64,000 bases of DNA, taken from a virus. Positions 6,661-12,544 of the stretch are shown piece after piece (position 1 is the stretch's first letter; every line of letters starts with the position of its first letter). The notes below the pieces were generated by a model. The model had not been told where the DNA came from and searched no databases. It was given only the letters and a program-made list of their open reading frames with translations. Both the position numbers and the translations under genes were made by a program. The DNA lies in IMG/VR virus record IMGVR_UViG_3300031418_000005, positions 96,001 through 160,000 of that record, one strand, 5' to 3'.

Positions 6661-6702
6661 AAAAAAAATAAAAAAGAATACACCCACTCCGAAGAGTGGG
6701 TG
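6661..6702 (-). terminator. terminator closing the tRNA/ncRNA transcript
   Basis: CACCCACTC-TTCG-GAGTGGGTG hairpin followed by long U-tract on minus strand. Confidence 0.85.
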
Positions 6703-6705
6703 CTT

Positions 6706-6995
6706 CCCTGGTACTGGCATTGAAATTACAACAGGAGCGTCTTCCTGGGCAGAACGCGGGTCGCGTTCGGAAGACATTTAGCGCATCGGCATGGGCTAAT
6801 TGATTCCGGTTACATCCGCACCAACGCACCAGGCAGGGTTCACGGAAATGATGATGCAACCAGAAAGTGGTTCACCATCCCGTACCCCGAAACGCGTCTG
6901 GAGACTAACGTAAAGGATACGGAACAGCGAATGGTTTTTCGTGCTACCCCCGACCATGGATGGATTTGTCTTAGGAATGTCTCCGGGACAAGGGT
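6706..6995 (-). ncRNA. candidate ~290-nt structured ncRNA
   Basis: No credible ORF; nested helices (CCTGGTGC/GTACCAGG, GTCTTCC/GGAAGAC, GAACGCG/CGCGTTC, TCCGTATCC/GGGTACGGG) between tRNA-Asn and terminator. Confidence 0.55.
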
Positions 6996-7005
6996 AACAC
7001 AAAAG

Positions 7006-7081
7006 TGGCGACTCCGGCAGGACTCGAACCTGCGACGAGATAATTAACAGTCATCCGTTCTACCAACTGAACTACAGAGTC
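7006..7081 (-). tRNA. trnN: tRNA-Asn(GTT)
   Basis: Full cloverleaf, anticodon loop CT-GTT-AA, TTCGAGT T-loop, encoded CCA. Confidence 0.95.
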
Positions 7082-7086
7082 ATAAA

Positions 7087-7165
7087 TCGCGAACACCGTA
7101 CTGGATTCGAACCAGTGAAAAATCCGATTATGGGTCGGGTGCTTTTTCCTCAAGCTAACGGGTTC
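7087..7165 (-). pseudogene. degenerate tRNA with CAT anticodon
   Basis: Intact D/T arms, loop CC-CAT-AA (C33), bulged acceptor stem, 3' GCGA instead of NCCA. Confidence 0.6.
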
Positions 7166-7171
7166 ATTGTA

Positions 7172-7247
7172 AGGTCAACGGTTATGGGATTCTAACCCAC
7201 CTGGTCTGTTCGCGAGCACAGTGCATCACAGTTTTGCTTACCGTCGA
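7172..7247 (-). pseudogene. degenerate tRNA-like element
   Basis: TCGACGG/CCGTTGA acceptor, T-arm GTGGG-TTAGAAT-CCCAT, 8-nt anticodon loop GCTCGCGA. Confidence 0.5.
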
Positions 7248-7252
7248 TAAAA

Positions 7253-7373
7253 GGGAAGTCACCACCGGACTTGAACCGGTAACCGCACCACTACGCCACC
7301 GCCATTATTGCACCGCGGTGCGTGTTGGTCAGTATTGGTCGTAAGGTGTGCTCTAATCTTGAGCTAGGCGACT
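7253..7373 (-). ncRNA. tRNA-like RNA with ~45-nt insert in the anticodon arm
   Basis: Canonical acceptor AGTCGCC/GGTGACT, D-arm GCTC/GAGC, T-arm ACCGG-TTCAAGT-CCGGT; 121 nt total. Confidence 0.7.
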
Positions 7374-7380
7374 ATAGATT

Positions 7381-7470
7381 TGGCGGAGAATGAAGGATTC
7401 GAACCTTCGGGCAGCTTGCGCCACCACTCCCTTAGCAGGGGAGCTCTTTCGGCCACTCGGACAATTCTCC
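7381..7470 (-). tRNA. trnS: tRNA-Ser(GCT)
   Basis: Cloverleaf with long variable arm, CT-GCT-AA loop, CCA. Confidence 0.95.
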
Positions 7471-7475
7471 GGAAC

Positions 7476-7553
7476 TGGGGTGTATGGAGAGACTCGAACT
7501 CTCGACCACTGACGTCACAAGCCAGTATTCTAACCAGCTGAACTACATACACC
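7476..7553 (-). tRNA. trnH: tRNA-His(GTG)
   Basis: Cloverleaf, TT-GTG-AC loop, G-1 and C73, CCA. Confidence 0.95.
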
Positions 7554-7559
7554 ACTAAA

Positions 7560-7640
7560 TGGGGGAACACCCAGGCTTCCACCCAGTCGAGTGGGGACGA
7601 ATCCATCACTCCTGTCATCACTGATGGTGACAATGTTCCC
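7560..7640 (-). ncRNA. CCA-ended cloverleaf-like non-tRNA
   Basis: GGGAACAT/GTGTTCCC terminal helix plus CCA, three internal hairpins, no TTC T-loop or 7-nt anticodon loop. Confidence 0.55.
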
Positions 7641-7647
7641 ATAATGC

Positions 7648-10408: not shown

Positions 10409-10420
10409 TATTTTCCTTTA

Positions 10421-10508
10421 GGTGGGTGAGCCAGGGCTCAGGAGTGAAAGACCGTAGAGTAACAAGCACTCCATCTGGCAACACCCCCGAAAGGCTCTAC
10501 GGGTTTTC
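10421..10508 (-). promoter_or_regulatory. structured leader/pseudoknot-like RNA directly upstream of terB RBS
   Basis: Long hairpin (GGGTG/CACCC, GCCAG/CTGGC, GGAGTG/CACTCC) whose loop CTCTACGG is complementary to upstream CCGTAGAG. Confidence 0.5.
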
Positions 10509-10541
10509 TATTTCAAAAGTAACACACCGAGCCAAGTGTGT

Positions 10542-10617
10542 TGGAGGGGCAAGCCGGACTTGAACCGACCTGATCCGAATTTGCAATTCGTCGCCTAACC
10601 ACTCGAGCCATTGCCCC
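10542..10617 (-). tRNA. trnC: tRNA-Cys(GCA)
   Basis: Cloverleaf, TT-GCA-AA loop, U73, CCA. Confidence 0.92.
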
Positions 10618-10647
10618 AAGGTGTGGTGGGCCGAAGCCCACCGGTAT

Positions 10648-10872
10648 TCAGCCTGCGTTGAACGATTCGTGGACGACCCCTTCCGGTAAGTGCGTTGTGC
10701 CAATGTGTTTGCATCTCAGGATTACTCCGTCTTCGTTGCGAAACACATCAGTCCAGCGCCCATGGTTGGGCTTCGTTGCGCGCGCAGCTTGCTCCGTAGG
10801 AGCAGCAACGACTATGGAATCAAACTCGTCGTAACCGACATCGTCTTCACGTTCTAGCAAATACAAGTTCAT
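10648..10872 (-). CDS. small phage protein (MNLYLL..YDEFDSIVVAA..E..AR family)
   Basis: Start re-assigned to ATG 10872 with GGAG RBS; 74 aa. Confidence 0.75.
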   Translation of the reverse strand: MNLYLLEREDDVGYDEFDSIVVAAPTEQAARATKPNHGRWTDVFRNEDGVILRCKHIGTTHLPEGVVHESFNAG

Positions 10873-10935
10873 GAGAATCTCCAGCGAATGGTCAATTGTC
10901 CTTTCGTGGTTTCTCACATTCTTGCTGGCTAAATT

Positions 10936-11011
10936 TGGCAGGGGAGACAGGACTCGAACCTGCAACATTCGGTTTTGGAGACCGACGCTCTACCAGTTGA
11001 ACTACTCCCCC
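10936..11011 (-). tRNA. trnW: tRNA-Trp(CCA)
   Basis: Cloverleaf, CT-CCA-AA loop, G73, CCA. Confidence 0.95.
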
Positions 11012-11022
11012 AGAATTCTTCA

Positions 11023-11117
11023 CTCAGGTGCCATGCGGATAGGTGGCGATTTCTTGCGTTGGCCAAACAGCGTCAACACCGTATCCCGCAGCCCTAGCTG
11101 TTTTGGTTCTTCCTGAG
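11023..11117 (-). ncRNA. candidate pseudoknotted RNA
   Basis: CTCAGG/CCTGAG closure; TGCGGGATA/TATCCGCA and GGTG/CACC hairpin; CCAAAACAGC pairs with loop GCTGTTTGG. Confidence 0.5.
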
Positions 11118-11119
11118 GT

Positions 11120-11623
11120 TTATTTTGTTTTTGAGACATGACTAATCTCCCGAATCTCACCGCCAGTGTTCACATCGAACCGTGCCGCAATACTCACTGC
11201 GTCAGCAGCGGATGCACCTGCGGCCATCGCACCGATGGCGAACTCAGAACCACTACCCACCGCAATGGGTGCTGTGACTTTGGTTAGCCATGGCATCTCG
11301 TCGTTCTCGTATTGACCACCGGCGTAAACGTTACCACCCTCGGTAACGACCAGGTAGCTAATCACAATCCCTTTCGGGAACCGTGTGCTGCCGGTCAAGC
11401 CCTGGTAACCCTTCATGCAACTGGACAAGGCTTCACGCAGTGCGTTGTTCCCTTGCAGGCATCCGGCTACCCCGAACGATATCGCTCGCTCTCCGTTCAC
11501 CACCCAGGACTCACCTGGTTGCGGTGTAAAGATTTTCACAGCGTGCATCGACAGGCGGATATCGCCTTGGGTCGTTTGGGAATCACCCGCGAGGGTTTTC
11601 CCGTCGTAGGCGATTGTGGTCAT
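11120..11623 (-). CDS. Ntn-hydrolase, proteasome-beta/HslV-like peptidase
   Basis: Start ATG 11623 (GGAG RBS) gives M-TTIAYDG..LAGDSQ.T; K33-like KIF; AVGSGS..A.GA motif. Confidence 0.85.
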   Translation of the reverse strand: MTTIAYDGKTLAGDSQTTQGDIRLSMHAVKIFTPQPGESWVVNGERAISFGVAGCLQGNNALREALSSCMKGYQGLTGSTRFPKGIVISYLVVTEGGNVYAGGQYENDEMPWLTKVTAPIAVGSGSEFAIGAMAAGASAADAVSIAARFDVNTGGEIREISHVSKTK

Positions 11624-11677
11624 CGCAGTTCTCCGTGGGTTGTTTAACATACCCAACGGCTAACTTGTAAATTTTAT

Positions 11678-12240
11678 TCAGCCAGGCATCGACGCTTCAC
11701 AGCGAGAACACCCACCCCTCTCGTCTTCCCGAGCCGCCAAGATTGGATCACCTCCCTCGGGAGTAACCCCAAGTCTACGGTTCTACACGCAGACCCCTAT
11801 CGACGCAACGCCGAATTCGGATTGGCCGCACCCCAGAGCAGGAACAACGAGGACTACCGGAGGTAAGTTCAACGGCGTATACTCGAAGTCCCGCATCTGG
11901 AGCTGCCACGGTACCCGGCACATGTGTGGCGGTGAAAGCGCCCTGCACTACGGCCCCTGAGCCGAATGCAAAAGCCAGATACCTGAATGGGTGGGTGGTT
12001 CAAAGTTTCCCCGCTCGGAACCACCCGTTCGAAGTGCCGCGAAACACTTTGACCGAACATAATAAACAAAACGACAGTGTTAGGCTGAGCGATTTGCTTT
12101 GTCGAGGGCTTCCACGGTCGGAAATTCTCGAAAAAGCACCCTGGCTGGTGAAGACCAGGGTGGAGCTCTGCACATGCAGACAAGACAGCTTCTCAGTGCA
12201 GTGACGCTTGAGAATCATTTCGCATATAACTACTGGCTGA
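11678..12240 (-). ncRNA. candidate ~560-nt large ornate ncRNA
   Basis: Ends pair (TCAGCCAG/CTGGCTGA); more than 10 helices; G-U pairs favour minus strand; no credible ORF. Confidence 0.6.
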
Positions 12241-12261
12241 CGTAATCGAGTTGGCAGGGGA

Positions 12262-12293
12262 GAAAAAAATAGCCCCGAGGTTTCCCAGGGGGC
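12262..12293 (-). terminator. intrinsic terminator
   Basis: GCCCCCTGGGAAACCTCGGGGC hairpin + TATTTTTTTCT. Confidence 0.7.
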
Positions 12294-12544
12294 GGAGCCA
12301 ACACACAGCAGTCCCTACGACTCTCGGGTCGCTTGGGTTCCCCATCTTACCAGCCTGTAAGAATTCGTTGTTGAAAAATCGCCACTCCCATTCACGCTAC
12401 GTGGAGCTGAGACTCATTCTCGGTCGGGAGTGGCTTTCCCGTAATGCCATCGGGGTCAACTTGTCACACTACTGGGTAGCCTTGTAAAAAATAATTGCTC
12501 CCGGTTCACCCCTCGCTCCCGATCACGATCTCGTAATAAGGATC

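Follow-up and report, generated by a model that had tools for sequence, protein, structure and literature searches.

We examined a 64,000-nucleotide (nt) stretch of viral DNA, referred to below as the window, which corresponds to bases 96001-160000 of the 246,337-bp virus record IMGVR_UViG_3300031418_000005, and analyzed an island of transfer RNA (tRNA) genes and other non-coding elements located at 6661-12500 of this stretch. The genome containing the window is that of an SPN3US-like Erwinia jumbo phage (Erskinevirus, 246 kb). For region 6600-12600, identity was ~87% with phiEaH2 and Stratton, two Erwinia phages of Erskinevirus, and, in parts, 76-80% with SPN3US-like jumbo phages of Machinavirus, Wellingtonvirus and Seoulvirus. 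The minus strand of the island, which is the strand of all tRNA genes, protein genes and RNA elements described below, carried 10 canonical tRNAs that encode CCA, together with an aberrant tRNA(CAU) and ~12 further non-coding elements; protein-coding sequence amounted to ~2.4 kb, in 6-7 genes. All tRNA genes of the genome fall within this island.

A previous inspection of the letters and reading frames (the sequence-only reading) had described the locus as a tRNA array interleaved with about a dozen structured RNAs on the same strand. Eight of the ~12 non-tRNA elements (TL-A, TL-C, E3, E6, E5, H1, a hairpin with leader upstream of terB, and a large RNA) were supported by compensatory changes, as was the tRNA(CAU) family, with comparisons extending to up to four phage genera. 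The other four (TL-B, E4, a 3′ trailer and 12207-12500) had no such comparative support. The main array runs from 8316 to 7006 and is followed by a hairpin, a folded trailer and a strong intrinsic terminator at 6703-6680 (10-bp stem with six G-C pairs, 4-nt loop and T-run), which closes the block as had been proposed.

Covariation was assessed by counting pairs changed on both sides, and the same counts made with slid partners served as control. Elements were assigned to a strand by their many G-U pairs, which would be A-C on the opposite strand. Rfam was searched at gathering threshold over the whole window and at an expectation value (E) of up to 10 on 6400-12800, 11640-12300 and 8300-8680. 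At threshold, only tRNAs were detected in the window. Raising the limit to E 10 gave no match for any other element of the island: the low-scoring entries were plastid motifs antisense to tRNAs, YrlA hits overlying tRNAs, and further motifs well short of threshold.

Canonical tRNAs and the tRNA(CAU) family

Eleven tRNAs were identified by both ARAGORN and Rfam, all on the minus strand, and 10 of them encode CCA. Those of the main array are tRNA-Asn(GTT) (7006-7081), tRNA-Ser(GCT) and tRNA-His(GTG) (7381-7552), tRNA-Ile(GAT) and tRNA-Asp(GTC) (7648-7810), tRNA-Glu(TTC) and tRNA-Tyr(GTA) (7965-8132) and tRNA-Gly(CCC) (8241-8316). Further upstream, segment 10542-11011 contains tRNA-Cys, a ~74-amino acid (aa) open reading frame (ORF; 10648-10872) found by ORF calling, and tRNA-Trp. 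Ten canonical tRNAs had been counted previously, and this number was correct. The eleventh (anticodon CAT, 7091-7164) is an aberrant member of the tRNA(CAU) family, with two acceptor mismatches, C at position 33, no CCA and the lowest Rfam score of the 11 (33.7 bits). Since its family covaries well (12 of 22 pairs changed on both sides in eight sequences), degradation is limited to the copy in the window.

In cross-phage comparisons, true tRNAs were 54-100% identical. tRNA-Ile and tRNA-Trp showed 97% identity to SPAsTU versus 78-90% to the other relatives compared. Alignment of 7165-7380 with relatives revealed a mosaic of cassettes, with tRNA cassettes swapped between these phages.

tRNA-like units in array slots

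Under relaxed settings, ARAGORN filled gaps of the array precisely with tRNA-like folds, at 7173-7246 (TL-C), 7254-7373 (TL-B) and 7560-7639 (TL-A). In addition, a scan of 6400-13200 for T-arm-like hairpins (5-bp stem, 7-nt loop) found 14 on the minus strand versus one on the plus strand, and these 14 were the 11 tRNAs plus TL-B, TL-C and a fourth unit, E3 (7815-7959). The spacers around the tRNA-like units are 4-9 nt long, the same as between true tRNAs. The acceptor/T-arm half of tRNA, including the 7-bp acceptor stem, was present in all four units together with an N-CC(A) tail, and the view of these units as tRNA mimics in tRNA slots is supported. The accompanying claim of acceptor-like stems with CCA ends was correct for TL-A and E3, in which the 7-bp stem is followed by one nucleotide and an encoded CCA, but not for TL-B and TL-C, which terminate in N-CC without an encoded A. 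None of the four units matched the Rfam tRNA family (RF00005) at its coordinates, even at E up to 10.

None of these units contains a 7-nt anticodon loop on a 5-bp stem. In its place are a 6/8-nt loop (TL-C), a 35-48-nt insert (TL-B) or other arms (TL-A and E3). TL-C is a cloverleaf ending in A-CC, detected by ARAGORN only below the default threshold. It was found in four other phages, with 92-99% identity and invariant loops. In the comparisons across genera that gave 54-100% for true tRNAs, TL-C was 93-99% identical, and most of the true tRNAs were less conserved; 3 of 20 pairs of TL-C had changed on both sides among six sequences. The TL-C copy in one Machinavirus is 98.6% identical to that in the window, yet the unit is absent from the closest relatives. 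TL-B was recognized at the default threshold with the intron option and has canonical acceptor, D and T arms, an insert in the anticodon arm and a T-CC end. TL-A is a tRNA-sized, cloverleaf-like RNA ending in C-CCA, whose fold was kept in the window and two relatives; both its closing stem and its second arm show compensatory changes.

E3 is an expanded cloverleaf with two long variable arms and a C-CCA end. Its family comprises nine distinct members of 114-158 nt, which represent three body types with the same ends. The alignment misplaces the 5′ strands of two members, and pairing was scored sequence by sequence. All seven pairs of the closing stem were formed in seven members and six of seven pairs in the other two, with compensatory variants, and this stem appeared in the unconstrained minimum free energy structure of seven of the nine members. 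The T-arm-like hairpin and 3′ strand are invariant in the family, and the tail is N-CC(A/T).

Structured elements without tRNA features

Covariation across related phages, which had been proposed as a test of the island, was strong for E5, H1 and the large RNA. E5 (8323-8391) is a rod-like RNA of ~70 nt at the 5′ edge of the main array. In 16 sequences, 98.6% of its cells were paired versus 36-47% with slid partners, and 8 of 23 pairs had changed on both sides versus 0-3 in the control. G-U pairs fix its strand, and its purine-rich internal loop is invariant. E5 is single-copy in the genome and was found in every related locus. Immediately 5′ of it lies E6 (8397-8560), a region with at least three small conserved hairpins and invariant single-stranded blocks, in which 6 of 18 pairs had changed on both sides (12 sequences). 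The first 26 nt of E6 overlap the 3′ end of a 61-aa protein gene, whose stop codon falls in the loop of the first E6 hairpin.

At the other end of the array, H1 (6937-7004) forms a long hairpin with conserved internal loops, directly adjoining tRNA-Asn. In 11 sequences, 7 of 20 pairs had changed on both sides versus 1-2 with slid partners, and 94.9% of cells were paired versus 45-56%. An HDV-like (theta) ribozyme located 3′ of a tRNA was considered for H1 and rejected: no ribozyme family matched at E up to 10, and the covarying fold joins the 5′-most with the 3′-most segment and is not a nested double pseudoknot.

Segment 10409-10541 contains a hairpin after tRNA-Cys, with five pairs changed on both sides in seven sequences, and a ~90-nt leader upstream of terB that is almost invariant even though the genomes share ~76% identity overall. 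A helix involving the terB Shine-Dalgarno sequence was predicted in all seven sequences; this helix is invariant and hence gives no covariation signal. The remaining candidates are E4 (8133-8240), an A+T-rich spacer with hairpins (z-score -3.24 on the minus and -0.23 on the plus strand), and the strongly folding 3′ trailer (6704-6936; segment 6703-7005 has z-scores of -4.91 and 0.00, respectively). An ORF annotated over the trailer in Stratton overlaps the terminator and the start of the next gene.

A large RNA upstream of the HslV-like gene

The largest element is a structured RNA of ~530 nt with 15 helices (11680-12206), located upstream of the HslV-like gene and derived from a seven-sequence alignment. 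Of its 100 pairs, 39 had changed on both sides versus 5-8 with slid partners, and 94.7% of cells were paired versus 38-48%. For the 3′ half, 25 of 57 pairs had changed on both sides among 10 sequences, and the 3′ domain was supported by 15 sequences, including one from a 222-kb E. coli replicon. Abundant G-U pairs assign the RNA to the minus strand. Its 5′ end is uncertain, as helix 1 (12206-12202) shows one-sided changes only.

A G+C-rich hairpin followed by a T-run, as expected of an intrinsic terminator, was found at 6703-6680, at 12290-12273 upstream of the large RNA, and at 12162-12137 within it. A hairpin with T-run is present in relatives at the alignment position of 12273-12290, and because it precedes the RNA in relatives too, the 11680-12206 RNA looks like a separate gene. 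The hairpin at 12162-12137 may not terminate, since in the fold of the large RNA a conserved A-rich strand is the pairing partner of its T-run.

Coding explanations for this segment were tried and rejected. Its ORFs carry stops and frameshifts in relatives. A short peptide was also considered for the 3′ domain, where a TTG-started frame of 20 codons is in frame in some relatives; in the alignment, read by eye, this frame is broken by 1-2-nt insertions in three relatives and has lost its stop in a fourth.

Two sequence features of the RNA were also recorded. An 11-nt Shine-Dalgarno-like run, GGAGGTGATCC, occurs in a single-stranded part (11745-11755, minus strand), and variants of it are retained in most relatives; we take it to be complementary to the 3′ end of 16S rRNA. 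In addition, a T-run followed by ACA or ACG recurs at a variable distance of 4-20 nt after the last hairpin (~11657-11680 in the window; also L013, L014, L028 and L096). The same combination was found after upstream terminator-like hairpins and could be a terminator tail or a promoter element.

Distribution and annotation

Among 50,697 phage records, the large RNA and E6/E5 each had 61 matches, with identical organism and host breakdowns: 32 records were from phages of Salmonella, 25 of Erwinia, two of Escherichia, one of Proteus and one of Enterobacteria. Among the records listed, the same phages matched both, and most had no annotation there. SPN3US retains the large RNA, E6, E5, tRNA(CAU) and H1, and only tRNA-Trp and one 'tRNA-OTHER' are annotated in its record. 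In bacteria, a 20-mer pattern for E5 gave 58 matches, about as many as estimated for chance. None of these was recognized by the E5 model, the best reaching 17 bits (E 0.25), and within the searches made E5 is absent from bacteria. The large-RNA pattern was found in only five metagenome contigs and 10 IMG/VR stretches. Part of the stretch was also present in 20 sequencing-run entries, a few of them labelled RNA and with small shares, which are not taken as evidence for expression or habitat.

E. coli genomes contained a single match, on a 222-kb replicon of an isolate (NZ_CP173450.1, 146804-156872; 'plasmid'). Its copy of the large-RNA 3′ domain covaries with the others. The domain lies there in a 2-kb gene-free stretch, followed by a 166-aa gene in the HslV position and then a tRNA. 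This replicon looks like a related jumbo phage.

Short coding sequences (CDSs) for hypothetical proteins are annotated over the trailer, large RNA, E6 and tRNA-like genes in Stratton, phiEaH2, Wellington and SPN3US (L001 1916-2257; L002 6211-6339 and 6570-6689; L008 5305-5514; L031 2940-3176). These are probably mis-calls. Literature searches yielded no description of these RNAs in SPN3US-like phages. The catalogue in PMC10690425 contains 8,495 candidate structured RNAs from IMG/VR, including tRNA-like structures; jumbo phages, Erwinia and SPN3US have no occurrences in its main text, although its supplementary tables may list some of the motifs.

Comparison with known RNAs

The closest parallel to the tRNA-like units is provided by the phage T4 genes rnaC (139 nt) and rnaD (119 nt), which close the T4 tRNA array, share its strand and are 1-6 nt from their neighbours. 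In-array position, strand and tRNA-like ends are common to both, and their sizes are also similar (119-139 nt for T4 RNA C and D; TL-B has 120 nt and the E3 family 114-158 nt). Furthermore, a canonical T-arm adjoins the terminal stem of rnaC. However, T4 has two such units at the 3′ end of its array, whereas four or five are interleaved in this island, and processing, which is documented for T4 RNA C and D, is only inferred for the latter. Blastn against rnaC and rnaD gave matches of just 9-17 nt with E of 0.33 or worse, and thus no sequence homology. The roles of T4 RNA C and D (species 1 and 2 stable RNAs) are given as unknown in PMC3014915 and PMC9697503.

The sequence-only reading had also placed the island beside GOLLD, ROOL and Y RNAs. 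With regard to the large RNA, some resemblance is evident: GOLLD and ROOL often occur near tRNAs, and the 11680-12206 RNA is likewise large, many-helixed and located beside phage tRNA genes. However, it had no Rfam match at the gathering threshold or at E up to 10, and it differs from GOLLD and ROOL in being ~530 nt long and restricted to a single clade of jumbo phages (61 of 50,697 phage records). YrlA resembles the tRNA-like units in being a non-coding RNA with a tRNA-like acceptor/T-arm module, but its model (RF02553) scored only 19-22 bits against a threshold of 69, and did so over canonical tRNAs. Moreover, no Ro/TROVE gene was found in the 246-kb phage genome. Membership in any of these families is not supported.

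Interpretation and alternative explanations

Taken together, we consider it reasonably likely that the locus is a conserved non-coding RNA island of SPN3US-like jumbo phages, which combines units in tRNA slots, structured elements of non-tRNA type and a separate gene for the large RNA. The first component would consist of the ten ordinary tRNA genes interleaved with tRNA-derived mimics, i.e., TL-A, TL-B, TL-C, the E3 family and the aberrant tRNA(CAU). The mimics would retain the 'top half' of a tRNA (7-bp acceptor stem, T-arm and N-CC(A)), with an anticodon arm that is missing, reduced or exchanged for long arms. What tRNA-maturation enzymes read is the acceptor/T-arm half and the N-CC(A) tail. 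We infer that the mimics are excised by RNase P and 3′-end enzymes, that a host CCA-adding enzyme completes their 3′ ends, and that, by analogy with T4 RNA C and D, they may accumulate as stable small RNAs unable to decode. In the second component, E6/E5 at the head of the main array and H1 next to a tRNA would act in cis on the array transcript, in its stability, processing or protein binding, and the separate leader is predicted to sequester the terB ribosome-binding site. As the third component, the ~530-nt RNA would be expressed from its own gene, starting after the conserved terminator.

In the sequence-only reading, the entire interval 12500-6661 was transcribed as one polycistronic precursor. 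Such a precursor is unlikely because of the 6-7 coding genes and the terminator-like hairpins at 12290-12273 and 12162-12137; the covarying hairpin after tRNA-Cys and the apparently separate large-RNA gene cast further doubt on it.

The evidence that goes beyond chance is comparative rather than thermodynamic. The structured RNAs had been expected to fold better than shuffled controls, and this was true of only 5 of 13 minus-strand segments (z-score of minimum free energy below -2). The remaining segments did not reach this level, and those with E5, TL-A, E3 and the large-RNA 3′ half were unremarkable (-0.25 to -1.46). Folding z-scores are thus a poor guide to elements in this locus.

These unremarkable z-scores weigh against the proposed island, as do several features of the comparative data. 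Structures were derived with RNAalifold on MAFFT alignments and counted on the same alignments, which favours them, and the shuffle control can be surpassed by phylogeny alone. In pairwise substitution tests, TL-B, E4, the trailer and 12207-12500 did no better than coding controls. E4 had relatives only in phiEaH2 and Stratton (92% identity), with one changed pair kept and two broken; the trailer was also found only in these two phages, with seven changed pairs kept and seven broken. TL-B is 120 nt long and 97.5% identical to its only relatives, in the same two phages, and provides no covariation information, and 12207-12500 has only near-identical relatives and no comparative support. Even for supported units the data are narrow in places: comparison of TL-A was limited to three sequences, all TL-C compensatory changes stem from one sequence, and exchange of tRNA cassettes could partly explain the high identity of TL-C via recent transfer. 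In addition, the T-loops of TL-A and E3 are non-canonical. TL-B and TL-C lack the terminal A in a phage without its own CCA-adding enzyme; neither the CCA-adding/poly(A) polymerase family nor an Rnl2-type ligase is encoded in this phage.

Some of these weaknesses would be expected if the tRNA-like units were decaying tRNA pseudogenes and the other spacers neutral filler, with nothing under selection. Next to other members of its family, the tRNA(CAU) in the window is visibly degraded, array content varies between phages, TL-B, E4 and the trailer show no covariation, and one TL-C copy has a canonical T-loop, suggesting tRNA ancestry. Decay nevertheless appears unlikely, as the stems of TL-A, TL-C and E3 are kept by compensatory changes, TL-C has invariant loops and exceeds most true tRNAs in conservation, the E3 family maintains the same ends on three body types, and E5, H1 and the large RNA covary strongly. 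A better case can be made, though we would still place it below an even chance, for E6/E5, H1 and the trailer having no function beyond a cis-acting one within the tRNA precursor, for example in protecting it, in its processing or in binding proteins, a possibility that overlaps with the second component above. E5 headed the main array in all 11 loci compared, H1 directly adjoined a tRNA in most loci, and both are single-copy and confined to this locus. However, in SNUABM_6 and pSal-04 a protein gene separates E5 from the next tRNA and H1 is located 5′ of tRNA-Asp, not 3′ of tRNA-Asn; moreover, E5 has invariant internal loops, which point to a specific ligand.

It is established that phage tRNAs can offset anticodon nucleases, and the mimics had been proposed as decoys for such host enzymes, with the whole array serving as an RNA-based counter-defence. 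The canonical set does include tRNAs for Asn, Asp, His, Tyr and Glu, isoacceptors attacked by known anticodon nucleases. We regard the decoy role of the mimics as improbable, because they conserve the acceptor/T-arm half and TL-A, TL-C and E3 have no 7-nt anticodon-type loop. Even less credible, and close to negligible, is the explanation that the conserved elements code for small proteins or function at the DNA level, as origin, packaging or protein-binding sites. A unique A+T-rich palindromic region lies just upstream (~12570-12680), and short CDSs are annotated over these stretches in several relatives, but G-U pairs make the helices strand-specific, ORFs in the large RNA are hit by stops and frameshifts in relatives, and only the 61-aa ORF behaves as coding.

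If the conserved RNA island is the correct description, likely partners of the mimics are proteins that read the acceptor/T-arm half and not the anticodon, because that half is the conserved part; that readers of the acceptor end or elbow are more likely partners than anticodon readers is speculation. A broader and rather doubtful extension is that SPN3US-like nucleus-forming jumbo phages keep a coordinated set of at least eight RNA families absent from libraries, in which 'top-half' mimics serve as sponges or guides for acceptor- or elbow-reading proteins, and the ~530-nt RNA and E5 rod belong to the same programme. Candidate targets would be host toxins that modify or cut the acceptor end, or the machinery for tRNA processing and CCA addition.

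The usual reading of phage tRNA arrays is limited to compensation for codon usage or defence, whereas a large share of this one is conserved non-decoding RNA. The public records examined leave most of this RNA without annotation or wrongly list it as short hypothetical proteins. T4 RNA C and D have gone decades without an assigned function; with SPN3US in Salmonella as a second case, richer and amenable to genetics, this question would become testable, and the retention of only the acceptor/T-arm half in the mimics limits where partners need to be sought. The large RNA is a further instance of a big structured RNA located beside phage tRNA genes.

Protein genes and other features of the region

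The 61-aa gene (8535-8720) had no Pfam match, and no CDS is annotated under it in Stratton or phiEaH2. Six relatives preserve its reading frame, stop codon and residues, with indels that are multiples of three or mutually offsetting (1+1). Judged by this pattern, the ORF behaves as a real gene. Segment 8721-8894 showed no structure by any test applied. It is followed at 8895-10408 by three protein genes, for an NMT1-like solute-binding protein, a 60-aa membrane protein and TerB, identified by gene calls and Pfam. The gene at 11120-11623 is annotated in relatives as an HslV-family peptidase and had no Pfam match at E 0.01; segment 11012-11119 next to it overlaps a 46-aa ORF (11020-11160).

Upstream of the island, at 12570-12680 (flanks to ~12800), ~100 bp of almost pure A/T contain two copies of a dyad and are flanked by G+C-rich inverted repeats. 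The dyad 12-mer is confined to these two sites in the whole genome, which ruled out a recurrent promoter. This A+T-rich region is conserved in SPN3US, SPAsTU, SNUABM_29 and SNUABM_9, and may be an origin or a unique regulatory site.

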